The translations under genes were made by a program, and so were the position numbers. A stretch of DNA of 64,000 nt, from contig CAWEWF010000007.1 of NCBI GenBank assembly GCA_963812605.1, forward strand, positions 32,001-96,000, given 5' to 3'. This document shows positions 1 to 32,912 of the stretch, piece by piece (the stretch's first letter is position 1; each line of letters begins with the position of its first letter). A model generated the notes under the pieces. That model did not search any database and had not been told where the DNA came from. It saw only the letters and a program-made list of their open reading frames with translations. The stretch is from an uncultured Verrucomicrobiae bacterium (GTDB lineage Bacteria > Verrucomicrobiota > Verrucomicrobiia > Palsa-1439).

Positions 1-279
1 ATCTGGGCGATCACGGTCGGTTCGAACATGGCAAAGGCCACCCCGCTGATGGGCGCGGGCGGGCCGTTCGCGGACTTCTTGCAAATTGGCGGCGTGCCGC
101 TGGTGCATCCGGGGGATGATGCGCGGTTCATGCTGATTGGCGCCAAGGAGCTTGGCGGCACCACATTGTTGCGATTTTACGTGTTGCACTGCGTCGGCAT
201 CCCGCTGATTGCGGCGGTGTTGATGGCGGTGCACTTTTGGCGCATCCGCAAGGATGGCGGCATCTCCGGGCCGCTCTAG
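1..279 (+). CDS. petB: Cytochrome b6-like subunit of a Rieske/cytochrome b complex (5'-truncated by window edge)
   Basis: Open frame from base 1; LLRFYVLH...HFWRIRKDGGISGPL is the cytochrome b6 C-terminus with heme-ligand His. Confidence 0.9.
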   Translation: MWAITVGSNMAKATPLMGAGGPFADFLQIGGVPLVHPGDDARFMLIGAKELGGTTLLRFYVLHCVGIPLIAAVLMAVHFWRIRKDGGISGPL

Positions 280-309: not shown

Positions 310-1524
310 ATGGAACAAGCAGCGGCAAGTCATGGCGTTTTATTCGAGGCGTTCAAGGCGGTGGCCAATGTGCTGGCCACCCCGTGGCTGAGCTTTTCAC
401 TCACGACCATCGGGCTGTTGCTCCTGTTGCGCTTCCGCCGGTATGTCTTCAACTGGTGGATTGGCATCCTGGCCCTCGCGATCGAGGGCGGGGTGGTCAT
501 CTGGGGGATGAAGGACCCGAATTTTTTGCTCATCGTCGGCAAACCGGACAACGTGCCGATCACCGCGATGTTGTTCATCTCCACTTTCGTGCTCTGGCTC
601 GCCATGACGCAGGCCGTGAACAACGATCGGCGTGTGGAACAAAAACTGCCGCCGGACGAGAAAGAGACTTCCAACCAAAAAACCTGGGTCTGGCCCGACC
701 TGCTTTACATCGAGTTCATCGCGTTGATCATCTGCTCCATCGTCCTGATCCTTTGGGCGATTTACCTGCGCGCGCCGCTCGAGCAGCCCGCCAATCCCGC
801 CGCCACGCCCAATCCATCGAAGGCGCCATGGTACTTCCTCGGGTTGCAGGAAATGCTCGTGTACTACGATCCGTGGTACGCGGGCGTGGTGTTGCCGAGC
901 ATCATCGTCGTCGGGCTGATGGCGATTCCGTACATTGACGTTAACCCGAAAGGCAGCGGCTACTTCACGTTCACGGAACGAAAGTTCTCAATCGGGATAT
1001 TTTTGTTCGGTTACCTGGCGCTGTGGGTCTTCATGATCATCACCGGGACCTTCCTGCGCGGCCCGGGCTGGAATTTCTTCGGGCCGTTTGAGTACTGGGA
1101 CCCGCACAAAATCGTCGCGCTCAACAACGTGAACCTTTCCGACTATGTCTGGGTGAAATGGTTCCAATGGATTTACCAGAAGACGCACATCGAGTGGTTT
1201 AACCAGGGTCTGCCGCAGGTGCGGAATGCGATCCCGCAATTGCTTCCGCCGGATCCCACATCGATTCGCTTGTTCCTGGTGGAGGTCGGTCACGCCATCA
1301 AGCGCGAATTCGCCGGCATCCTCTTCTTGGCGTTCTATTTCCTCGCCCTGCCCGGTATCCTGGCCAAGACGATTTTGAAAAAGTTTTATGAGGAATTGGA
1401 TTTTGCGCGCTACAGCGTGTTGGTGATGTTGTTCCTCACAATGTTCACCTTGCCGTTGAAGATGGTCCTGCGCTGGACGATGACGCTGAAATATTTCGTG
1501 GACACCCCGTGGATCAAGTTCTGA
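310..1524 (+). CDS. petD: Cytochrome b6 subunit IV-like protein with extra membrane helices
   Basis: WVWPDLL...APLEQPANPAATPNPSKAPWYFLGLQE (PEWY-equivalent APWY); directly follows petB. Confidence 0.85.
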   Translation: MEQAAASHGVLFEAFKAVANVLATPWLSFSLTTIGLLLLLRFRRYVFNWWIGILALAIEGGVVIWGMKDPNFLLIVGKPDNVPITAMLFISTFVLWLAMTQAVNNDRRVEQKLPPDEKETSNQKTWVWPDLLYIEFIALIICSIVLILWAIYLRAPLEQPANPAATPNPSKAPWYFLGLQEMLVYYDPWYAGVVLPSIIVVGLMAIPYIDVNPKGSGYFTFTERKFSIGIFLFGYLALWVFMIITGTFLRGPGWNFFGPFEYWDPHKIVALNNVNLSDYVWVKWFQWIYQKTHIEWFNQGLPQVRNAIPQLLPPDPTSIRLFLVEVGHAIKREFAGILFLAFYFLALPGILAKTILKKFYEELDFARYSVLVMLFLTMFTLPLKMVLRWTMTLKYFVDTPWIKF

Positions 1525-1528
1525 GGCG

Positions 1529-4500
1529 ATGAGAAACCAACCCGAGACGCTCCACGAATACAATATCCCGCGCCTGAACTGGTGGTTCCTGCTCAGCGGC
1601 CTCGTGTTCCTCTTGAGCCTCGTGCTGATGATTTGGGTCGATTATTCCGGCGGCTATATTCCCTGGCTTGCTCTGCATGGCGATCGTGAGTGGAAAAACT
1701 ACCAACATCAATTCTACGCACTCGATATGAAGCGCCTGGCGGCCGACGCCAAGGCCGCCGAACTCAAGGCCAACGAGGCGGGCCTGTCCAAGATGCAGGA
1801 AGACCTGGATAAAACGAAGCAAGAGTTGGAGGGGAAAAAGCCCGAGGAGGCGAAATTGCAGGCTGCCGTGGATCAAGCGCGGGTGGAAGATGACCTGATC
1901 ACGCGCCAGTTCACCATGGAAAAGGCGGTGCGCGACCAGTACCGGTCCTTGTACGAAGAAGCGCTCGAGGCCAACAACATGAATCAGGACTCACCAGTGG
2001 TCCGTGATGCAAGGGACAAAGCCGAGTCGCAAAACGAACTCGTGAACCGGCTCGATCTTCGCAAACAGGATGCCGACGCCCGGCTCCAGGCCGCGAAAGA
2101 CAATCAGGCCGCGCTGATGGGTCACGAAGTAGAGTTGCAACACAGCATCAAGCGGATGGACGACGGTATCAAGCTTCTGACCACTCGGTACAAGCAACTC
2201 GATAGCGCGCTCGTCCAGGACGTAGTCAATGCGCCCGTCATCGAATTCGCCGCCGGGACCATCAAGGTCGAGCAGATCATCGCCGACAATCATCACACCG
2301 ATGTGAACTTCGCGACAGTCCCGCGCGTGGATCGTTGCATCATGTGCCACAAGGGCATCGACCGGAAGGACCCGACACCCGAAGACCGCGCCTGGCGTGC
2401 CAAGCACAAGATCGAGTTCATTGAGTGGTCGAAGCAGCCACAGCCGCTCCGCAACCATCCGCAAATGGATTTGTTCGTCGGCGACACCTCGCCGCACCCG
2501 GCCAGCACCTATGGTTGCACCGTTTGCCATTGGGGTTGGGACCGCGAAACAACGTTTACGCGCACCGGCCATACACCGGATGCCGAAGAGAAGCAGCCGT
2601 ACATTTTTGATGCTTCGACGAAACAGTGGGTGAACGTTCCGAAGAGTGAGGATGACGATGATGACGATGCGAAGGCGCAGAAGGTGTCGTTGCAAAAAAC
2701 CAATGTCGTCGAAATGACCCAGAAAGTTGCGTGGCAGAAGAATCACAACTGGGAAGAGGAAGAGTTCCTCATGCAGCCGATGCGCGCTGCCAGGTATGTC
2801 CAGGCCAGTTGCTTGAAATGCCACAATAACCAAACCAATCTGAAGGGCGGCGAGAAACTGGACCATGGTCGCCGTCTCATCGAGCAGTTGGGTTGCTGGT
2901 CGTGCCATAAGATGAAGCAATTGGAGACGTACACAACCCATCACGTGGCCGCCGGCGAGGATTTTGACAGTCTTTGCAAATTCTACGACGTAAATGCCGA
3001 CGATGTGCGCCGGCTGAACAGTTTCCCGGAGGAAGTTTCGCTGACGATTGGGCAGGAAGTGAACATCCCAATCCGCACGCTGCGCAAGCCGGGCCCGAGC
3101 CTGTACAAGGTGGCCAGTAAGACGAACAAGGAGTGGATGCGCAAGTGGCTCGCCAATCCGGTGGCTTTCCGCCCGAACACCTACATGCCGCGCTTCTGGG
3201 GACTCGACAATAACGCGGGCACGCCCGACCGCAATGCCGTCGAAATCAATGCAATCGCGGAATATCTTTTCGCCGTAAGCCAAGCGCGGCGCAAGGCACG
3301 AATGCACAGGGCAGCAATATGCTCGTCAATGACGGGGGCATTACGTGGGCAAATTCTCTGCCCAGTTCCGTATATCCCGCGCCGGTCCAGGGCGACGCCG
3401 ACAACGGCAAGAAGCTCCTCGGCCAACTCGGTTGCATGGGATGCCACGTCGTCGATGAGAAGTTGATGGACATCAAGGTGCCCGCGTCGCTCAAGCAATA
3501 CATGGACGACTGGCAATACCGGCGGTTGCGCTCGCAAGGGCCGCAATTGGCAGGCGTGGGCAGCAAGACCGGGGTCAACTGGCTCTTCGCGTGGCTGAAG
3601 GATCCGAAGCAGTATCATCCGAGGACGAAGATGCCGAACCTGCGATTGAGCGACCAGGAAGCGGCGGATGTCGCGACGTACCTTGCCAGTCTTCACAACG
3701 AGAAGACCGACCAGGAAACGTTGCCCGAGACCAAGGCGGATCTTCTCGATAAGGAAACCGTCGAGTACCTCCAGGTGACGCTGCCGATGGAAGAAGCGCG
3801 GCAAAAGATCAACAACCTCGACGACCTGATCGAGATGTATTTCGTCGACGAAGAGACGATGAAGTACTACCAGGACCCCGCGCGGCTCGCCCGCGAAGAA
3901 GCCCAGCTCAAGGCCCTGCAGAAAGAATTTGAGGAGACGTTCGACGACGCCGTGGACCGCAAAGCGAAGAGGTTGGCCGCGCAGATCGAGCAGGTAAAGG
4001 CGAAAATGCAGGCGGCGAAGCAGACGGTCGCCGCGATGCAGTTCACCGACAAGAAGAATGTGTACCTGGGCAGCAAATTGATTTCGCGTTACGGTTGCTA
4101 TGCCTGCCACGACATCCATGGATTCGAAACCGCCAAGCCCATCGGCACCGAATTAAGTGAGTGGGGCAGCAAGCCGGTCGATAAACTGGATTTCGGCCTG
4201 GTGGACATCGAGAAGGCCCGCCTCCCGTGGTTGAAGCAGAAACTCCATGCGCCGCGCTCGTTTGACAACGGGCGCATCAACGTCACGCGCATGCCGCAGG
4301 AGTTGCTGAAGATGCCGAAGTTCAACCTGACCGACGAACAGATCGACCAGATCGTCACCGTCATCTCGGGCATGACCGACGAGAAATTGACGCCGAACGA
4401 GGCGCGGCAATTGACGCCCGCGGAATTCCAGATCGAGCGCGGCCGCTGGACGGTGAAGGAATTGAACTGCATCGGCTGTCACATCGTGGAAGCGCAAGGC

Positions 4501-5163
4501 GGCGCGGTTCGCGCGACGGGCCTGCCGACGGGGATGGAGCCGCCGCTATTGAGCGGCACGCCAACACAATTGCACCAGGGGCAACGCACCCAGCCCGATT
4601 GGCTGTTCCAATTCATCAAGGCGCCGCAAACCGGCCAGATTCGCCCGTGGCTGCATGTGCGGATGCCGACCTTTGGATTGACCGATGGCGAAGCCAACGT
4701 GCTCGTGAAGTATTTCGCGCTGCAAGGCGAGGCGCAATTCCCGTATCAATCGCCGAAGATTGACATGTCGCCAGAGCACCTGGCCGCCGGCAAGCAGTTG
4801 TTCGAGCAATTGAAGTGCGCGTTGTGTCATATCGTCGACGGCAAGGCGCTGGGCAAACCACTTTCGGAGATCGCCGAGGAAGATATGCCGCGTTTGGCGC
4901 CCAATCTTTCGCAGGCGCACCTGCGTCTGCAGCGCGACTGGCTGGTGAACAAATGGCTCGTGGAGCCATTGGCGCAACAGCCGGGGACGCGCATGCCGCA
5001 GTTCGAATACGGTACGGCCGTCGCGCCGAACATCCTCGGCGGCGATGGACGCAAACAAATCGAAGCGCTGGTGGATTACGTGCTGACATTGGGCACGCAC
5101 GAGCAAGTTGCGGAAGCAGCGCCGCCCCCCGCGCCGGTGGCGGCGCCGCCAGCACAACCGTAA
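1529..5163 (+). CDS. Large membrane-anchored octaheme cytochrome c with coiled coils and an internal LysM domain; frameshift near 3280 joins ORFs 1529-3466 and 3319-5163
   Basis: N-terminal TM; 8 CxxCH (CIMCH, CTVCH, CLKCH, CWSCH, CMGCH, CYACH, CIGCH, CALCH); last five followed by class-I GPxL..WL..P..MP-like patterns; the second frame is open upstream of 3319. Confidence 0.85.
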
Positions 5164-5283: not shown

Positions 5284-6012
5284 ATGAGAGTATCCAAAGT
5301 TTTGAAAGTGGCAATGGCGGTGCTGTTGACGGGAGCGACCTGCTATGCGGCAGATACCGCGTCAATATCCGGCAAGGCGATTCTGGACGGCACGCCTCCG
5401 AAACCCAAGAAGATCAAGAATCTGGAAGGCACCGATCCCAAGTGCGCCGAGATGCATGCCGATAACCCCCTGATGAGCGAAGAGGTGGTTGCGAGTGCGG
5501 ACGGCGCGCTGAAAAATGTATTCGTTTATGTGAAAAGCGGCCTCGGGGACAAGACGTTTGATGTGCCCAAGGATCCGGTCACAATCACGCAGACGGGTTG
5601 CCATTACGTCCCTCACGTATTCGGCATGATGGCCAAGCAACCGCTGAAGATCGTCAACGACGATGACACGCTGCATAACATCCACGCCATGCCCAACAAT
5701 CCCGATAACAAGGAGTTCAACAAGGGACAGCCGAATAAAGGCATGGTGTCCACGGTTACCTTCGCTGTTCCGGAGGTCATGGTGCACTTCAAGTGCGATG
5801 TGCATCCCTGGATGTCGGCGTACGTGGGCGTGCTGAACAATCCCTTCTACAGTGTGAGCAGCGATGACGGCACGTTCTCGCTGAAGGGTCTACCGGCGGG
5901 TGAGTATACAATCGCCGCCTGGCATGAGAAGTACGGCGAACAGGTCCAAAAGGTCAAAATCGGCGACGGCGAAACCAAGACCGTCGAATTCAAGTTTAAG
6001 CCGGCCGAATAA
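5284..6012 (+). CDS. Secreted cupredoxin-like / carboxypeptidase-regulatory-like domain protein
   Basis: SD AAGGAG; signal peptide; HNIH and CDVHPWM motifs; C-terminal DGTFSLKGLPAGEYTIAAWHE beta-sandwich. Confidence 0.8.
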   Translation: MRVSKVLKVAMAVLLTGATCYAADTASISGKAILDGTPPKPKKIKNLEGTDPKCAEMHADNPLMSEEVVASADGALKNVFVYVKSGLGDKTFDVPKDPVTITQTGCHYVPHVFGMMAKQPLKIVNDDDTLHNIHAMPNNPDNKEFNKGQPNKGMVSTVTFAVPEVMVHFKCDVHPWMSAYVGVLNNPFYSVSSDDGTFSLKGLPAGEYTIAAWHEKYGEQVQKVKIGDGETKTVEFKFKPAE

Positions 6013-6105: not shown

Positions 6106-7908
6106 ATGACAGAAGCGCAGCATCACGAAGAGCATCACGATAAGTTGCCGTTTTGGCGGCACTACATTTTCTCGACCGATCATAAGATGATCGGCATGCA
6201 GTACGGCCTGACCGCGCTGGTGTTTTTGCTTTTCGGCTTTTGCCTGATGCTGCTGATGCGCTGGCAACTGGCCTATCCCGGCCAGCCGCTGCCGATTGCC
6301 TTTTTGGCAAAGCTGCTTGGAGAATCCCGCATGCCCGGCGGGGTGATGGCGCCGGAGTTTTACAACCAGCTCGGCGCGATGCACGGCACGATCATGGTCT
6401 TTCTCGGCGTCGTGCCGCTGGCGGTGGGCGCGTTCGGGAATTATCTGGTGCCCCTGCAAATCGGCGCGCAGGACATGGCGTTCCCCAAGCTCAACATGTC
6501 CAGCTACTGGGTGTATTTTATCGGCGGCGTGGTCATGTTTGGCAGTTTCTTCGTGTCCGGCGGCTCGGCCCAGTCCGGTTGGACTTCATATCCGCCGCTT
6601 TCGGATGTTACCCCTCTTAGCCATTCGCTATTCACGGGCCAGTCCCTGTGGCTAACGGGCATGGTGTTCCTGATTACTTCGTCGCTTCTGGGTTCGGTCA
6701 ACACTATCACCACCATCATCCAGTTGCGGGCGAAGGGCCTGACGTGGATGCGGCTGCCATTTTTTGTGTGGGCGCAATTGGTCACGGGTTTCCTGCTGCT
6801 CCTCGCATTCCCGGCGCTGGAAGCCGCGGGTGTGATGCAATTGATGGATCGCATGGCGGGCACGAGCTTTTTCCTGCCCACCGGCCTGGTGATCAGCGGC
6901 AGGCCCCTCAACGTGAGCGGCGGCGGCAGCGCGTTGCTCTGGCAGCACCTCTTCTGGTTTCTGGCGCATCCCGAAGTGTACGTCTTAATCCTGCCCGCCA
7001 TGGGGATCGTCGCCGAGATCATCGCCAACAACACTCGCAAACCGCTGTGGGGCTACAAATCCCTGGTGTATTCGGTGGTTTTCCTCGGGTTCATGTCCTT
7101 CGTCGTCTGGGCCCATCACATGTTCCTGACGGGCATGGGCACGGCCATCAACGCCTTCTTCCAGACGACCACGATGATCATCTCCATCCCGTCGATCGTC
7201 ATCCTGACGGCGCTGATCCTCTCCCTGTGGGGCGGTTCCATCCGGTTCAACGTGCCGATGTTGTTCGCCCTCGCGTTCCTGCCGATGTTCGGCATTGGCG
7301 GCCTGACGGGCCTGCCGCTCGGGCTGGCGAGCGCGGATATTCATCTGCACGACACCTATTACGTCATTGGCCATTTCCACTACGTGGTCGCGCCGGGGAC
7401 GCTCTTCGCGCTCTTTGCGGGCATTTATTACTGGTTCCCGAAGGTCAGCGGCAAACAGATGAATGAGTTCCTCGGCAAATTCCATTTCTGGGGCTCGCTC
7501 ATCTTTATGAACGGCATCTTCATGCCGATGTTCATCGTTGGCATGGCAGGTGTGTCGCGCCGTCTATACGACGGCGGCAGCTCTTATCTCCACGCTCAGA
7601 ACATTCTTTTCCTGAACAAGGTCATGTCGCACTCGGCGTGGGGCCTGGCAGTCATTCAACTTTTCTTCATCGTGAACTTCTTCTGGAGTCTTTTTGCCGG
7701 ACGGAAGGTGACCAACGACAATCCGTGGGAGGCCACGACCCTCGAATGGGCCACCCCGACTCCGCCGCCACACGGGAATTTCCTCACGGTCCCCGAAGTC
7801 TTCCGCGGACCCTACGAGTACAGCGTGCCCGGTGAGGAAAGGGATTTTCTCCCGCAGAATGAACCCGACAAGAAGCCGGACGACCCGAATAACCGAGGAA
7901 AGAAATAG
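6106..7908 (+). CDS. ctaD: Cytochrome c oxidase subunit I (A-type)
   Basis: STDHK, MHG, HLFWFLAHPEVY, VWAHHM, HDTYYVIGHFHY, RR motifs. Confidence 0.97.
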   Translation: MTEAQHHEEHHDKLPFWRHYIFSTDHKMIGMQYGLTALVFLLFGFCLMLLMRWQLAYPGQPLPIAFLAKLLGESRMPGGVMAPEFYNQLGAMHGTIMVFLGVVPLAVGAFGNYLVPLQIGAQDMAFPKLNMSSYWVYFIGGVVMFGSFFVSGGSAQSGWTSYPPLSDVTPLSHSLFTGQSLWLTGMVFLITSSLLGSVNTITTIIQLRAKGLTWMRLPFFVWAQLVTGFLLLLAFPALEAAGVMQLMDRMAGTSFFLPTGLVISGRPLNVSGGGSALLWQHLFWFLAHPEVYVLILPAMGIVAEIIANNTRKPLWGYKSLVYSVVFLGFMSFVVWAHHMFLTGMGTAINAFFQTTTMIISIPSIVILTALILSLWGGSIRFNVPMLFALAFLPMFGIGGLTGLPLGLASADIHLHDTYYVIGHFHYVVAPGTLFALFAGIYYWFPKVSGKQMNEFLGKFHFWGSLIFMNGIFMPMFIVGMAGVSRRLYDGGSSYLHAQNILFLNKVMSHSAWGLAVIQLFFIVNFFWSLFAGRKVTNDNPWEATTLEWATPTPPPHGNFLTVPEVFRGPYEYSVPGEERDFLPQNEPDKKPDDPNNRGKK

Positions 7909-8523
7909 ATGTCTACTGCCATTGAGATTCCTTATAACTCGACCGAGCGACCGGATACCGGCCTCTACAACGCCAAGCTGGGCATCTGGCTCTTTCTCGC
8001 CTCGGAAGTGATGCTGTTCGGCGCGTTATTCTCGACGTATGTGCTGCTGCGCACCGGCGCGGAAACGTGGGAAAACGGCGCCAAAATCGGCCTGAATATT
8101 CCCCTGGCCACCATCAATACGCTGGTGCTGATCATCTCCAGCGTGACGATGGTCATGAGTTGGGCCTCCCTCAAGATGAAAAACCTGGGCCGGTATAAAC
8201 TCTTCATGGGCGTGACGATCCTTTGCGGCGTGGTCTTTCTGGTCATCAAGGGTTTTGAGTACGCGCATAAATTCGAGCACGGGATCTGGCCCGCGACGAG
8301 CACCTTCATGGCAATCTACTTTACGATGACCGGACTGCACGGATTGCACGTCATTGGAGGGATGATTGTCAATTCCTACCTCTGGGGACCCGGCACCAAG
8401 ATGTGGCAGACCGACCCCGAGCGCTTCACCAATCGCATCGAAGTCGCCGGCCTGTACTGGCACTTCGTCGACCTCGTATGGATTTTCCTGTTTCCCGTGC
8501 TTTACCTTTTGCCGGGGAAATAA
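7909..8523 (+). CDS. ctaE: Cytochrome c oxidase subunit III
   Basis: WLFLASEVMLF, TGLHGLHV, LYWHFVDLVWIFLF. Confidence 0.95.
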   Translation: MSTAIEIPYNSTERPDTGLYNAKLGIWLFLASEVMLFGALFSTYVLLRTGAETWENGAKIGLNIPLATINTLVLIISSVTMVMSWASLKMKNLGRYKLFMGVTILCGVVFLVIKGFEYAHKFEHGIWPATSTFMAIYFTMTGLHGLHVIGGMIVNSYLWGPGTKMWQTDPERFTNRIEVAGLYWHFVDLVWIFLFPVLYLLPGK

Positions 8524-8895
8524 ATGGATCGAGAACCCATGAGCGATACACATCACGAAAACGTTCAAAGTCACGTGAAGACCTACATTAGGGTCTTCGT
8601 TGCGCTGGCGGTTGGCACGGTTGTCACGGTGTTGGCCTCCTACACCCACTTGGGCATCATCCTCGGCATTGTCGTGGCGTTGATCATTGCTACAGTCAAA
8701 GGCTCGCTCGTGGCAGCTTTTTTCATGCACTTGTCTGCCGAGCGAAAAATGATCTACTGGGTGCTCGTGCTCACGGCGACATTTATTGTGGTGATGATCG
8801 GGTTGATCATGTTTGCCCGCGAGGACCAACAGGGACGCCAACAGGGGATTTTCGCCGTGCCGCAGCGACACGTGCCGGCGGCAACGGCGGAGTAA
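8524..8895 (+). CDS. ctaF: Cytochrome c oxidase subunit IV family protein
   Basis: Three TMs; K..LV..FFMHL motif; operon position. Confidence 0.85.
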   Translation: MDREPMSDTHHENVQSHVKTYIRVFVALAVGTVVTVLASYTHLGIILGIVVALIIATVKGSLVAAFFMHLSAERKMIYWVLVLTATFIVVMIGLIMFAREDQQGRQQGIFAVPQRHVPAATAE

Positions 8896-8897
8896 AC

Positions 8898-9098
8898 ATG
8901 TCACTGAAAACATTCCATATTATCTTCGTTACGATGGCCGTTTTGTTGTGCCTGGTTTTTGGCGGTTGGTGCCTCAGTTCGGATTACGCAAAGGGACGCA
9001 CGGGCTATGCGATTACCGGATACGTCTCCTTTGGCTTTGGCGTGTTGCTGGTGCTGTACGAGATCGTGTTTCTCAAGAGTTTGAAGGAGAAGAAATAG
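8898..9098 (+). CDS. Small two-TM membrane protein (66 aa)
   Basis: MSLKTFHIIF start, two hydrophobic helices, tightly packed in the operon. Confidence 0.7.
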   Translation: MSLKTFHIIFVTMAVLLCLVFGGWCLSSDYAKGRTGYAITGYVSFGFGVLLVLYEIVFLKSLKEKK

Positions 9099-9102
9099 GA
9101 CG

Positions 9103-9351
9103 ATGAACATCTTTTGCCGCGCCAGGAAATTGATGGTGCTCGCGCTGGTCGGCGCAATGGCTTTGGCGCCACGCCTGTTGCTGGCGTGCGCTGTCTGTTA
9201 CGGGGCGCCCGGAGCGCCGCAGACGCGTGGCATGAATTTCGGCGTTTTCACCATGCTGGGTGTCACGGGGGTGGTGCTGGGTGGTTTTGGCGGCCTGTTT
9301 TTTAGTTTCGCGCGACGGGCGCGCCGTCACAGCGCGGAATTGACGCCATAA
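9103..9351 (+). CDS. Small membrane protein with ACAVC motif
   Basis: Signal-like N-terminus, CxxC, one C-terminal TM; lies between ctaF and ctaC. Confidence 0.7.
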   Translation: MNIFCRARKLMVLALVGAMALAPRLLLACAVCYGAPGAPQTRGMNFGVFTMLGVTGVVLGGFGGLFFSFARRARRHSAELTP

Positions 9352-9376
9352 CGATTCAAGCGAAAAGGACTGAACC

Positions 9377-10324
9377 ATGTTGCAGAAGTTTTTAGGATTA
9401 CCGATCAACGCCTCCGAACAGGGGGCGCAGATGGACTGGCTGATTCTCTACGTACACATCCTGATGCTGGTCCTGTTCGTGGGCTGGATTATCTTTTTCT
9501 TCTATACGCTCTTTCGCTTCAGCAAGGGTCGCAACCCCAGGGCGGATTATACCGGCGTCAAGACGCACGCTTCTTCGTATCTGGAGGTGGCCATCGCCGC
9601 GATCGAAGTCGTCTTGTTGGTTGGCATCTCGATTCCCTTCTGGTCGTGGAAAGTCAGCGCGTTCCCGACCGAACCGAATACGGTGCACGTGCGCGTGGTC
9701 GCCCAGCAGTTCGCGTGGAACATCCACTATCCCGGTCCCGACGGCATTTTCGGCCACACGGACATCAAATTGGTCAACGAGGAGTCGAACCCCATCGGGC
9801 TCGATCGCAAAGGTGATCCGCACGCGAAGGACGACATCGTGACCCTGAACCAGCTTCATCTTCCCGTGAACCGCCCCGCGGTCATCGAGATCACGACCAA
9901 GGATGTGATCCACAGCTTTTTCCTGCCCGTCATGCGCGTGAAGCAGGACGCCATCCCGGGCATGCTGATTCCCATTCACTTTGTCCCGACCAAGACTTCC
10001 GATGAGATGCGCGAGGAATTGGCGATGACCCTCACGCTTCCCACAACGAAGAACCTGGATATTTACGTATCGATGGAAGAATACAAGGCGGCGGACGGCA
10101 CGGTCCTAGTGAAAAAGGGCCGTTCCATTAACGGCGAAACGGCCGCCAAGCTGGTGGCCAACGGCATTACCACGGTCCGTATCGCGCCGCACTACCCGGC
10201 GGAAATTGCCTGCGCCCAACTCTGCGGCCTGAGCCACTATCGCATGCGGGGTTACCTCACGATCGACAGCGAGAAGGATTACGCGGCGTGGTTGAAAGAC
10301 CAGGAGGATTCAATCGAGGAGTAG
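9377..10324 (+). CDS. ctaC: Cytochrome c oxidase subunit II (CuA), no fused cytochrome c
   Basis: Two TMs, AQQFAW, DVIHSF, VKQDAIPG, CAQLCGLSHYRM. Confidence 0.95.
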   Translation: MLQKFLGLPINASEQGAQMDWLILYVHILMLVLFVGWIIFFFYTLFRFSKGRNPRADYTGVKTHASSYLEVAIAAIEVVLLVGISIPFWSWKVSAFPTEPNTVHVRVVAQQFAWNIHYPGPDGIFGHTDIKLVNEESNPIGLDRKGDPHAKDDIVTLNQLHLPVNRPAVIEITTKDVIHSFFLPVMRVKQDAIPGMLIPIHFVPTKTSDEMREELAMTLTLPTTKNLDIYVSMEEYKAADGTVLVKKGRSINGETAAKLVANGITTVRIAPHYPAEIACAQLCGLSHYRMRGYLTIDSEKDYAAWLKDQEDSIEE

Positions 10325-10355: not shown

Positions 10356-11282
10356 ATGAATAATCACTTTAACCATTGGCTGCACCGCTTCGCCTGTCTG
10401 CTGGCTTTCGCGACGTTTCTCCTCATTGTTGCGGGCGCGAACGTGACCAGCCACCGCGCGGGCCTGTCGGTCCCCGATTGGCCGACCACGTACGGCAGGT
10501 TCATGTTCTCTTTCCCGATATCGAAGTGGGTCGGCAACATCCGCTACGAACACGTGCATCGGCTGATCGCCAGCGTGGTCGGAATGTTGACTGTCGCCCT
10601 CGCATTTTGGCTGGTGCGGAAGGAGCCGCGCCGCTGGGTGCGCCGGCTGGGTATCACCGCGCTGGGTGTGGTGATTGCCCAGGGAGTGTTGGGCGGGTTG
10701 ACGGTCAAATTGATGCTCCCACCACCGATTTCCATCGCCCACGCGAGCCTCGCGGAAGCCTTTCTCTGCATCACGATGGCTTTGGCGCTGGTCACTTCCG
10801 AACGCTGGATGCAAGCGTCACCGGCCATCGAAACTGTCAATGCCAGGTTGATTCGAAGATTTGCACTGGCCTCGACGATCGCCATCTATTTGCAGATCAT
10901 CCTCGGGGCGACGATTCGTCATTCGGAATCAGGTGTTCTCGCGCATATCGTCGGCGCCGTCGTGATCTTTGGCTTTGTCATTATCAGCGTGGTGGTCGCT
11001 CTGCTCACTTGGAAACAAAGGGAATTCCTGCGACACTCGGTTCTATTGCTCGGCCTGGTCACCGCGCAGATCGCGTTGGGTTTGGTGACGTTGATGGTAC
11101 GCGTGCCGAAGAATGTCGATGGTCAATTGTCGGCGGTCCAGATGCTGGTGCCGACACTGCATCTTGCGCTGGGAGCGCTGGTTTTGGCGGTAAGTCTGGC
11201 GATCACCTTGAAGACCTACCGCTTCCTGGCTATGCCGAGGGAAGAAGCGGCACTGCCCTTTGCCGCAGGGGCGCTCTCATGA
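10356..11282 (+). CDS. ctaA: Heme A synthase (COX15/CtaA)
   Basis: GLSVPDWP, EHVHR, QGVLGG..V, conserved His in TMs. Confidence 0.9.
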   Translation: MNNHFNHWLHRFACLLAFATFLLIVAGANVTSHRAGLSVPDWPTTYGRFMFSFPISKWVGNIRYEHVHRLIASVVGMLTVALAFWLVRKEPRRWVRRLGITALGVVIAQGVLGGLTVKLMLPPPISIAHASLAEAFLCITMALALVTSERWMQASPAIETVNARLIRRFALASTIAIYLQIILGATIRHSESGVLAHIVGAVVIFGFVIISVVVALLTWKQREFLRHSVLLLGLVTAQIALGLVTLMVRVPKNVDGQLSAVQMLVPTLHLALGALVLAVSLAITLKTYRFLAMPREEAALPFAAGALS

Positions 11283-14510: not shown

Positions 14511-14938
14511 TCAGCACGTCTCAACTACCGGTCTTGAACGCCACTTTGAACGCGACCAGCGCCGTATTTCTTGCGTTTGGTTACGGCTTCATTCGCCAGA
14601 AGCGTGTGGCGGCGCATCGCGCCTGTATGTTGGTGGCGGTGGTGGTGTCGGTAGTATTCCTAGTTTCGTATGTAACCTATCACGTGCAAGTGGGCAGCAA
14701 GCATTTCCCCGGACAGGGACTGGCAAGGCCCGTGTACTTCACCATCCTGTTCACGCATACCGTGCTCGCGATGGCCGTGGCGCTTTTTCTAGCGCCCGTG
14801 ACGCTGGTCCGCGCCTTGCGCGAACGATTCGATCAACACAAGCGGATCGCGCGCTGGACGCTACCGATTTGGTTTTACGTCTCGGTGACCGGTGTGATTA
14901 TCTACTTCATGCTCTACCACTGGTATGCGCCTGCGTAA
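14507..14938 (+). CDS. DUF420 family membrane protein
   Basis: LNATLN, H..CM, HTVLA, HKRIARWTLPIWFYVSVTGV. Confidence 0.9.
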   Translation: MISTSQLPVLNATLNATSAVFLAFGYGFIRQKRVAAHRACMLVAVVVSVVFLVSYVTYHVQVGSKHFPGQGLARPVYFTILFTHTVLAMAVALFLAPVTLVRALRERFDQHKRIARWTLPIWFYVSVTGVIIYFMLYHWYAPA

Positions 14939-15668
14939 GCCGATTTTCTGGTTGATGCTGGCGGCGCTCCTGGCCGGGACTGCGATCCTGGCGGACGCGG
15001 AAAACGGGCAGGGCATTATTTCGGGCACGGTTCGCCTGGTGGGTCCTCCTCCGAGCATCCCCACCGTGCTGCCCCAAATGGATTTCGATATGTGCGGCTC
15101 CGCGGCACGACCAATGCAGTCGCTATTATTGGGGTCGAACCAGGTCGTCCGCAATGTCATCGTCTACCTGGCCGGTTACCCGCAAAGCAGTGTCGAGAGC
15201 GGGACCAACGACGCAATTATCGTCGATCAACGCGACTGTGAGTTTGTCCCTCGCATCCAGATCGCCCGCAGTGGCGTGCCGTTGATCCTGAAGAACAGTG
15301 ATCCGATCCTGCACGTCGTGCGCATTGATTTGATGAGCAGCACCAATGGGCCGCGAACGCTCTTAAAAGCTGCCACGCCTTACGCCGGTTATCAAAAAGT
15401 CTATCAACTCGCCAATTTTCACGAACCAACCCTGCTGCAGGTGACTTCCGTCAACGGCCACGAGTGGATGGCCGCTTACATCGCCGTTATGCCGCACCCC
15501 TGGGCCGCGCTTACCGACGAGAACGGGCGGTTTACGCTGCGCAATGTGCCAGTGGGAACGCACAAAATCTACGCCTGGCACGAAGCCCTGGGCACGCTGG
15601 TGCACGACGTGCGCGTCAATGGTGCAGGCAGTACCACGGCGGAGTTTCGTTTTTCAGCCTCACGCTAG
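14925..15668 (+). CDS. Second secreted cupredoxin-like / carboxypeptidase-regulatory-like paralog
   Basis: QRDCEFVPR, NSDPILH, GHEWMAAYI, TDENGRFTLRNVPVGTHKIYAWHE; similar to 5284-6012. Confidence 0.75.
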   Translation: MRLRKPIFWLMLAALLAGTAILADAENGQGIISGTVRLVGPPPSIPTVLPQMDFDMCGSAARPMQSLLLGSNQVVRNVIVYLAGYPQSSVESGTNDAIIVDQRDCEFVPRIQIARSGVPLILKNSDPILHVVRIDLMSSTNGPRTLLKAATPYAGYQKVYQLANFHEPTLLQVTSVNGHEWMAAYIAVMPHPWAALTDENGRFTLRNVPVGTHKIYAWHEALGTLVHDVRVNGAGSTTAEFRFSASR

Positions 15669-31856: not shown

Positions 31857-32912
31857 ATGTCCGCGTTCTTCACCGACCTGCTGCATATCTTCCAGAATCC
31901 GTACATCGCCCTGATTTTTTTCACGGCGCTGGTGTTTGATTTTATCAACGGATTTCACGACGCGGCCAATTCCATCGCCACGATTGTCAGTACACGCGTA
32001 TTGCGGCCATTTCAGGCCGTTCTCTGGGCCGCGTGGTGGAATTTCGCGGCGGCGTGGTTTTTTGGCGTCCACGTCGCCAACGCGGTGGCAACCTGGGTGC
32101 ATGCGGATTACGTCACAATCGAGGTTATCTTCGCCGGCCTTTTCGGGGCCATCGTCTGGAACCTGATTACCTGGTACGGGGGGATACCGTCGAGCTCATC
32201 GCACGCGCTGCTCGGCGGGTTTGGCGGCGCTGCTATTGTACACGCCGGGAAATGGGAAGGCGTTTTACAGACAAGCAAAGTGTTGTTGACGGTCGAGTTT
32301 ATCGTTATTGCCCCGCTGGTTGGCTTGCTACTGGGTCTCTTCTTCACGTTCATCGTGATGTGGGTCTTTCGCAAGGCTTCACCAATCAAGATGGATCACT
32401 GGTTTCGGCGCATACAACTCTGGTCGGCCGCAGCCTATAGTTTGGGTCACGGCACCAACGACGCGCAGAAAACCATGGGGATTATCGCGGCGCTGTTGTA
32501 CGCCAGCATTTGGAGAGGACAGCAGGAGGCGTTTGCCACGGGAAAGGTCGCGTTTCCGTTTTGGATTGTACTGGTTTGCCATTTTGCCATCGCGCTCGGC
32601 ACGATGTGTGGTGGCTGGCGAATCGTCAAAACGATGGGCATGAGGATCACGAAACTGCGGCCCTACGATGGTGCGTGCGCGGAACTCGCGGCGGCGACGT
32701 CGTTGTTTACAGCGGCATCTCTGGGTGTGCCGGTCAGCACCACACATACCATCACGGGCGCAATTATCGGGGTCGGCGCCGTGCACCGATTGTCCGCCGT
32801 GCGCTGGGGTGTGGCGCGGCAGGTGGTGTGGGCGTGGGTATTGACCATCCCCTGTTCGGCGGTGGTAGCGGCCGGGGCTTATTGGCTGCTGGCGCTTTGC
32901 CGACACCGTTGA
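31857..32912 (+). CDS. pit: Inorganic phosphate transporter, PiT family
   Basis: GFHDAANSIAT, PSSSSHA, HGTNDAQK, PVSTTH. Confidence 0.95.
   Translation: MSAFFTDLLHIFQNPYIALIFFTALVFDFINGFHDAANSIATIVSTRVLRPFQAVLWAAWWNFAAAWFFGVHVANAVATWVHADYVTIEVIFAGLFGAIVWNLITWYGGIPSSSSHALLGGFGGAAIVHAGKWEGVLQTSKVLLTVEFIVIAPLVGLLLGLFFTFIVMWVFRKASPIKMDHWFRRIQLWSAAAYSLGHGTNDAQKTMGIIAALLYASIWRGQQEAFATGKVAFPFWIVLVCHFAIALGTMCGGWRIVKTMGMRITKLRPYDGACAELAAATSLFTAASLGVPVSTTHTITGAIIGVGAVHRLSAVRWGVARQVVWAWVLTIPCSAVVAAGAYWLLALCRHR

Follow-up and report, generated by a model that had tools for sequence, protein, structure and literature searches.

LysM domains of peptidoglycan hydrolases such as NlpC/P60 of Thermus thermophilus (4uz2/4uz3), LytE of Bacillus subtilis (8i2e), MltD of Escherichia coli (1e0g), and AtlA of Enterococcus faecalis (2mkx) are carried in terminal repeat arrays, while MotB and TagL of the type VI secretion system use OmpA-like domains as the peptidoglycan anchors of inner-membrane machines. 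Here we analyzed a window of 64,000 nucleotides (nt; the whole stretch of DNA under study, positions 32,001 to 96,000 of contig CAWEWF010000007.1 in assembly GCA_963812605.1 of an uncultured Verrucomicrobiae bacterium), which encodes near its start an octaheme cytochrome c with a LysM domain nested inside its fourth heme domain. By comparing this insert with the LysMs of hydrolases, we found that both share the fold, the profile family, and the G, N, G, and P that mark a LysM, whereas the insert is a single copy embedded in a heme domain, carries a G-E-D-F-D loop in place of G-D-T/S-L-W/Y, has a net charge of -6, and scores far below the other LysMs of its own genome.

A likeness to MotB and TagL is possible, in that an energy-converting complex of the inner membrane would be fixed to the sacculus by a periplasmic wall-binding domain. 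Their domain, however, is OmpA-like and terminal whereas the insert is LysM and nested, and their machines need a mechanical stator or anchor, which a bc complex is not known to require. Actinobacterial QcrC is also a membrane-anchored c subunit with several class-I domains, in a Rieske/cytochrome b complex beside an aa3 oxidase, but the octaheme has eight hemes, two long coiled-coil regions, and ~1200 amino acids (aa), and we know of no wall-binding domain in QcrC. Octaheme orthologs without LysM in Acidobacteriota, Thermoanaerobaculia, Bdellovibrionota, and Planctomycetota share the eight hemes, the N-terminal anchor, and the coiled coil at 29-39% identity, but their heme-4 loop spans 20-24 residues (e.g., C-W-S-C-H-K-M-K-G-L-E-D-L-P-R-V-G-P-N-L in Thermoanaerobaculia). 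A LysM fold also lies within uS10m (6sg9/7pub), a large protein unconnected with the wall; uS10m is mitoribosomal and meets no peptidoglycan, whereas the octaheme LysM is predicted to be periplasmic, next to the sacculus. A first-pass annotation of this DNA, made from the letters alone, had proposed the nested LysM and knew of no characterized example; likewise, our full-text searches of the main literature returned no account of a cytochrome, bc complex, or respiratory complex with a LysM, and the octaheme is not discussed in the passages of PMC5600118 consulted.

Identity of the nested LysM domain

The insert lies between the heme-binding motif of heme domain 4 and the point where the cytochrome fold resumes, in the following arrangement:

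2894..2908, + strand: heme 4 motif CWSCH, residues 456-460, opening the insert-bearing class-I domain
2939..3070, + strand: nested LysM domain, H471-P514, 44 residues (PF01476 covers 471-514)
3086..3103, + strand: KPGPSL motif, residues 520-525, at which the cytochrome fold resumes
3173..3190, + strand: PNTYMP motif, presumed axial Met ligand of heme 4 (role inferred)

The string that had been read as fitting the LysM pattern between CWSCH and KPGPSL is present as T470-P514 (nt 2936-3070), its earlier start at 2933 being one codon early (T469). When scanned with the PF01476 hidden Markov model (HMM), the window's own sequence covers the complete profile (1-43 of 43) at 15.8 bits as a whole open reading frame (ORF), 19.6 bits as a 67-aa piece, and 20.8 bits as a 50-aa piece, against a gathering cut-off of 20.9 bits. 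In alignment A2, PF01476 recognizes every one of the 20 orthologous inserts (E<=0.1; best 4.9e-12); the proposed scan came out positive for the orthologs, while the window's sequence itself stayed just under the cut-off. Precomputed PF01476 matches in a large protein collection were present in 15 of 61 close homologs and in 0 of 35 distant ones.

A profile built from the 20 inserts and searched against the PDB (hmmsearch) retrieved LytE and Thermus thermophilus P60, both at 1.3e-17, followed by SleL (5.6e-12), Ecp6 (6e-09), and MltD (2e-05), and also AtlA; with the window's 187-aa piece alone, the best PDB match was again the T. thermophilus P60 LysM (E 0.005). Against a library of 1.84 billion proteins, the same profile matched 43743 proteins at E<=0.001, with multi-LysM repeat proteins making up the top 150. 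No CxxCH was found in any of these 150, a result that is uninformative on other LysM-cytochromes as multi-LysM proteins dominate the matches, and an ESM Atlas look-up returned ordinary cytochrome c clusters only, none with LysM.

Structure prediction with AlphaFold2 (AF2) for window positions 2720-3280 gave the beta-alpha-alpha-beta fold of about 44 residues that the annotation led us to look for (strand 70-75, helices 82-88 and 93-100, strand 113-118 of the model), with a predicted local distance difference test score (pLDDT) of about 90. This domain model (187 aa, 26 aligned sequences) has a mean pLDDT of 62.8 and a poor cytochrome part, and the LysM part alone was used. The same beta-alpha-alpha-beta unit is retained at pLDDT 81-88 in a full-length model of the ortholog in a related genome (G006). 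Foldseek searches of the domain model returned LysM structures almost exclusively, led by 4uz3_C (TMt 0.86, root-mean-square deviation (rmsd) 1.2 A) and including 2mkx and 1e0g, with rmsd values of 1.2-3 A; the accompanying E-values are weak because most of the 187-residue query is not LysM. The invariant positions of the insert are G476, N497, G508, and P514, which are the fold-defining residues of LysM. Together, the HMM matches, the profile-to-PDB search, the predicted fold, and the fold search identify the insert as a true LysM domain at the level of sequence and model, as had been proposed.

His471, which is nearly invariant in the family, was considered as an extra heme ligand and dropped, since the domain has its own invariant Met553. 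Elsewhere in the genome, outside the window, a 360-aa frame (G000 C4:146519-147166) carries three canonical LysM repeats of 38-66 bits; its immediate downstream neighbor on that strand is the genome's only FtsW/RodA-family match (C4:145270-146325).

A lineage-restricted insertion in heme domain 4

The host domain is assigned as a class-I, His/Met-type cytochrome c domain with predicted heme binding. Among 55 orthologs, C456, C459, H460, G522, P523, L525, M553, and P554 are invariant; the domain scores 20.4 bits on PF00034, just below the 21.3-bit cut-off, and the segment after the insert aligns to class-I domains of the CcoO type. With the full-length model as the Foldseek query, SoxX and plant and Crithidia cytochrome c were matched at TMt 0.55-0.60.

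Within this domain, CxxCH and the GPxL-type motif are 70 residues apart, as compared to 39, 20, 28, and 31 residues in domains 5-8, which bears out the earlier remark that the corresponding loop is much shorter in the other class-I domains. In alignment A1, all six LysM-less orthologs are gapped where the LysM would lie, and in them C-x-x-C-H-K-I/M-x-G-x-E runs directly to x-x-K-x-G-P-x-L, while the Verrucomicrobial sequences have ~48 extra residues; relative to the LysM-less orthologs, the inserted stretch comprises about residues 467-517 (nt 2927-3079). Loop lengths and this alignment agree with the first-pass view of an insertion within a class-I heme domain. Over 114 segments, taken from loci and database proteins in non-independent sets with shared genomes (the region is missing from four more proteins), the CxxCH-to-GPxL distance was 67-93 residues in 78, 20-21 residues in 35, and frameshifted in one (L017). 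The site corresponds, as we take it, to the loop of mitochondrial cytochrome c between CxxCH and G-P-N-L, bordering the exposed heme edge.

To map the distribution of the insert, we surveyed GTDB contigs with one genome per species, in which the best 80 of 419 relatives comprised 28 Verrucomicrobiota loci and 52 others (Acidobacteriota, Thermoanaerobaculia, Holophagales, Bdellovibrionota/Bacteriovoracia, Planctomycetes, and others). The insert is present in 26 of the 28 Verrucomicrobiota loci, the other two being a frame-broken locus (L049) and one whose contig stops partway through the insert (L051). Among these best 80 relatives, none of the 52 non-Verrucomicrobial loci has a LysM at the heme-4 loop: 50 have loops of 20-24 residues, one lacks the GP motif (L098), and one, from a metagenome-assembled genome (MAG) of Planctomycetia, has a 78-residue stretch (L085, 1654-1887). 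The latter holds an unrelated, apparently helical insert of ~58 residues in the same heme-4 loop, with no LysM match and coiled-coil-like noise only. The heme-4 loop is therefore a surface loop that tolerates insertions and receives them recurrently.

Within the order to which the window belongs, the octaheme gene was found in 31 of 47 genomes (E<=1e-15), and the insert is gap-free in every match that reaches it (28 full-length, 3 partial), so that all 31 gene-carrying genomes have it; it is kept at 27-48% identity in the two other families of the order, one of which (L022) has 23 additional residues between beta1 and alpha1. The gene is absent from the remaining 16 genomes, some of them at 94-99% completeness, and had no match at E<=1e-15 in 300 other sampled genomes of the phylum. 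The bc-type cluster is also patchy in the order, the octaheme being absent from whole genera (0/4 in g3 and 0/2 in g5, at 93-96% completeness). The LysM is thus an insertion into a class-I heme domain that, in the genomes searched, is restricted to one Verrucomicrobial order. Many of the relatives' records are MAGs from peat, palsa, or soil, from which no habitat is inferred for the window.

By pairwise Nei-Gojobori estimation on 20 gap-free sequences (126 of 190 pairs, those with saturated or near-zero dS being dropped), the ratio of nonsynonymous to synonymous substitution rates (dN/dS) was 0.22 for the LysM versus 0.10 across the remainder of the domain, and amino-acid identity was 70% versus 82%; these values are rough because dS is near 1. 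The insert is thus under purifying selection, which is looser than that on the host domain.

The octaheme cytochrome and its gene neighborhood

The remaining features at the start of the window are the following:

1..279, + strand: 3' end of a cytochrome b6-type gene, with the frame open at the window start and the gene beginning upstream
310..1524, + strand: subunit IV / PetD-like membrane subunit, 404 aa (PF00032 at 1.6e-05)
1529..3283, + strand: octaheme cytochrome c, N-terminal 585 codons, hemes 1-4, with the frame lost just after
1577..1645, + strand: single N-terminal transmembrane anchor, residues 17-39 (Kyte-Doolittle)
1691..2227, + strand: long antiparallel coiled-coil hairpin, residues ~55-148 and 156-233 (AF2 of the G006 ortholog)
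2336..2350, + strand: heme 1 motif CIMCH
2516..2530, + strand: heme 2 motif CTVCH
2810..2824, + strand: heme 3 motif CLKCH
3281..3379, + strand: linker joining heme domains 4 and 5, variable among strains, ~99 nt, holding a 1-nt deletion at its 5' edge
3319..5163, + strand: octaheme C-terminal part, hemes 5-8, with the frame open from about 3211
3433-3447, 4096-4110, 4468-4482, and 4816-4830, + strand: motifs of hemes 5-8
5284..6012, + strand: exported protein combining a C-x2-H-x2-M motif with a CarboxypepD_reg domain
6106..10324, + strand: aa3-type oxidase genes (Pfam PF00115, PF00510, PF03626, PF00116)
6106-7908, + strand: COX1
7909-8523, + strand: COX3
8524-8895, + strand: COX4
9377-10324, + strand: COX2

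The octaheme is encoded in two ORFs, each with four of its eight CxxCH motifs. The first ORF (1529..3466, + strand) matches residues 1-585 at 100% and has its motifs at residues 270, 330, 428, and 456, and the product of the second (3319..5163) matches PF00034 at 1.6e-32 in 4 stretches. Since the relatives carry the octaheme as a single open frame of 1176-1231 aa, the two ORFs are one gene. By blastn against two relatives' loci (L004/L024), one base is missing near 3287-3289 in a GC-rich run. The break may be either an assembly error or a recent pseudogene; the LysM lies ~220 nt upstream and is left intact. In relatives' contigs, the linker at 3281-3379 is replaced by 22 nt, the short form also being found in G006, while three loci (L004, L009, and L024) have a similar long form. 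None of the public sequencing runs contained more than 14% of the sampled words, and the relatives' contigs lack the window form of 3281-3379; the RNA-contig pieces are short and too small to claim expression. An ortholog in the same genus (G001 C140:3395-5145; L017/L139) is broken by four TGA and one TAG codons, with the frame lost inside the LysM; its genome is estimated at 84% completeness and 6% contamination, and the copy could be decayed or poorly assembled.

The single membrane anchor of the octaheme is suggested by a Kyte-Doolittle peak above 1.6 solely at residues 15-44 and by a helix at 13-40 in the AF2 model of an ortholog. The full-length AF2 model is that of the G006 ortholog, which is 90% identical and 1191 aa long (pLDDT 79.1; predicted template modeling score (pTM) 0.69). 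In this model the hairpin consists of helices 55-83, 86-101, and 104-148, a break at 149-155, and helices 156-225 and 227-233, at pLDDT 80-92, and a second helical region lies at residues 763-832. Foldseek matched the hairpin to the coiled-coil hairpins of SH3BP5, Smc arms, EmrA, and HlyD, and an arm of ~90 residues would span roughly 13 nm as an arithmetic estimate, not a measurement. A PDB search retrieved no solved structure related to the whole octaheme, the best match being a SCO1/cytochrome c fragment (E 0.0032), and the NCBIfam family bc1_QcrC_actin matched it partially at 2.3e-11, below cut-off.

Genes for Rieske protein, a short b6, subunit IV, and a c-type cytochrome are adjacent, as expected of a Rieske/cytochrome b complex. 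Upstream of the window (L112), a Rieske match (PF00355, 4892-5494) precedes a Cytochrome_B match (PF00033, 5501-6280), and the subunit IV gene has NCBIfam matches to cytb6_f_IV and an ExtQ-like family, both under cut-off. On this gene order, we assign the octaheme to a Rieske-cytochrome b complex of the b6/subunit-IV type, as its c-type subunit, with an aa3 oxidase encoded alongside. The initial description of the host as a membrane-anchored, coiled-coil-rich octaheme of the bc complex is borne out, and its gene lies between the Rieske/cytochrome b6/subunit IV genes and those of the aa3 oxidase.

Downstream of COX2 lie genes for CtaA, a UbiA-family (CtaB-like) protein, an ABC transporter, and SCO1. 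A second frameshift in the ctaA/ctaB region was considered and is unsupported, as ORF 10356-11282 appears to encode a complete CtaA and the frame overlapping it has no family match in its first 320 residues. The products of 5284-6012 and 14925-15668 are paralogous exported proteins with a CarboxypepD_reg-like C-terminal domain. The former has a C-D-V-H-P-W-M motif, which we take to resemble a copper or metal site, and no cupredoxin Pfam match. This protein family has several paralogs in genomes with LysM-less octahemes, and in one of them (G358) a paralog lies directly downstream of such an octaheme. Because the family also adjoins a LysM-less octaheme, the 5284-6012 protein is not a LysM-specific partner, and we rejected it as such.

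Proposed wall tethering and alternative roles of the insert

We propose, as the first-pass annotation did, that the LysM tethers the octaheme arm to the peptidoglycan sacculus, a tentative reading of the sequence and model evidence to which we assign a probability of roughly 0.45. A complete 44-residue LysM would have entered the CxxCH-GPxL surface loop of heme domain 4 once, before one Verrucomicrobial order diversified, and been retained since. One N-terminal helix is predicted to hold the octaheme in the inner membrane, with the coiled-coil hairpin and the eight hemes in the periplasm. If the LysM still binds glycan that contains N-acetylglucosamine (GlcNAc), namely the peptidoglycan sacculus, the wall would offer a fixed attachment point to the periplasmic heme arm of the complex III-IV chain.

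A sacculus is expected in this organism because the genome encodes an FtsW/RodA (SEDS) protein and two penicillin-binding protein (PBP) transpeptidases. In favor of glycan binding, the fold-defining LysM residues of the insert are invariant, and it keeps V473 and G476, the equivalents of residues that line the groove of P60 from T. thermophilus (P60_tth). In the P60_tth structure, chitohexaose is bound mostly by main-chain contacts from the beta1-alpha1 and alpha2-beta2 loops, together with a hydrophobic Val and Phe (PMC4356369). Changes in sugar-contacting side chains do not exclude binding, since LysM contacts are mostly main-chain.

Several observations weigh against wall binding. The canonical G-D-[ST]-L-[WY] loop is replaced by G-E-D-F-[DE] in 52 of 69 distinct inserts, and in alignments the side-chain contacts T26, Y28, and Q53 of P60_tth become D478, D480, and T506. 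All but one of the distinct inserts (68/69) are net acidic, with a mean of -3.8 and -6 in the window, whereas the genome's seven other LysMs have charges of +2 to +9 (counted by hand) and score 38-66 bits versus 19.5 bits for the insert. The loops that form the groove also vary in length: in two lineages they have gained residues (23 aa in beta1-alpha1 of L022 and 20 aa in alpha2-beta2 of P0057), and 9 segments have lost 3 aa. Furthermore, the LysM is evolving at roughly twice the rate of the domain around it, and the unrelated insert in the Planctomycetia MAG indicates that the heme-4 loop tolerates insertions. According to a review (PMC3210951), LysM domains bind near their own isoelectric point (pI) and positive charge favors wall binding.

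The same review describes a naturally acidic LysM, that of AcmD (pI 4.3), with wall binding at pH 4 and none at pH 6 or 8 (PMC3210951). Because the octaheme LysM is acidic, any binding of the sacculus would be predicted to be favored at low periplasmic pH. By extension, the acidic LysM might act as a pH-dependent latch that clamps heme domain 4 to the sacculus in acid peat and soil Verrucomicrobia, although we regard this as speculative and unlikely. If true, such a latch would fasten the complex III-IV chain mechanically to the wall, at a defined periplasmic height or at defined membrane sites, and the chain would represent the first wall-anchored respiratory complex.

The alternative that survives best, and which we consider plausible though short of even odds, is that the LysM took on a new role, either structural or in protein docking, and lost glycan binding. 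It could brace neighboring heme domains, or present an acidic surface by the heme-4 edge to a subunit or redox partner. In favor of this reading, the insert is the most divergent LysM of the genome (19.5 versus 38-66 bits), 68 of 69 family members are acidic with acidic residues conserved within the canonical sugar loop itself (G-E-D-F-D/E), and the groove loops tolerate 20-23-aa insertions. Purely protein-module LysM folds do exist, the trypanosome mitoribosomal uS10m being among the matches, and the insertion site presumably borders the exposed heme edge of a mitochondrial-type cytochrome c. In P60_tth, helices H1 and H2 of LysM1 pack on the catalytic domain (PMC4356369). However, no partner was identified, the 5284-6012 protein family adjoining the LysM-less octaheme as well, all fold-defining LysM residues are retained, and the mainly main-chain nature of LysM sugar contacts leaves room for binding despite the altered loop.

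It is rather improbable that the LysM binds another GlcNAc ligand in place of the intact sacculus and has a sensing or local recruiting role instead of tethering the complex mechanically. Candidate ligands would be muropeptides in soluble form, lipid-linked precursors, turnover products, or chitin oligomers that reach the periplasm; LysM binds chitin oligomers as well as peptidoglycan (PMC4356369), and the altered, acidic groove could reflect an altered ligand. The host, however, is an electron-transfer protein with no regulatory output domain, and its gene neighborhood has no sign of chitin or muropeptide metabolism; a single LysM is also usually weak, and P60_tth needed the cooperation of multiple domains (PMC4356369). 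Finally, the idea that the LysM likeness is a chance pattern in an ordinary long loop, which could draw on the window's own Pfam scores all being below 20.9 bits, is refuted by the PF01476 matches of 20/20 inserts, the PDB profile E of 1.3e-17, the confident beta-alpha-alpha-beta prediction, and the LysM-dominated Foldseek results.

Whether as a wall tether or in another role, the insert is a clean case of natural domain nesting, with a 44-residue fold sitting where a cytochrome c domain has an exposed loop just past its heme-binding motif. The LysM-less orthologs provide built-in controls, and the question of glycan binding is testable with one small recombinant domain. Respiratory complexes are normally viewed as freely diffusing membrane machines, and here a LysM is fixed across an order inside the electron-carrying subunit that would link complex III to IV. 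This suggests either that the placement of a complex with respect to the sacculus can influence respiration or that redox proteins can recruit LysM folds as parts.

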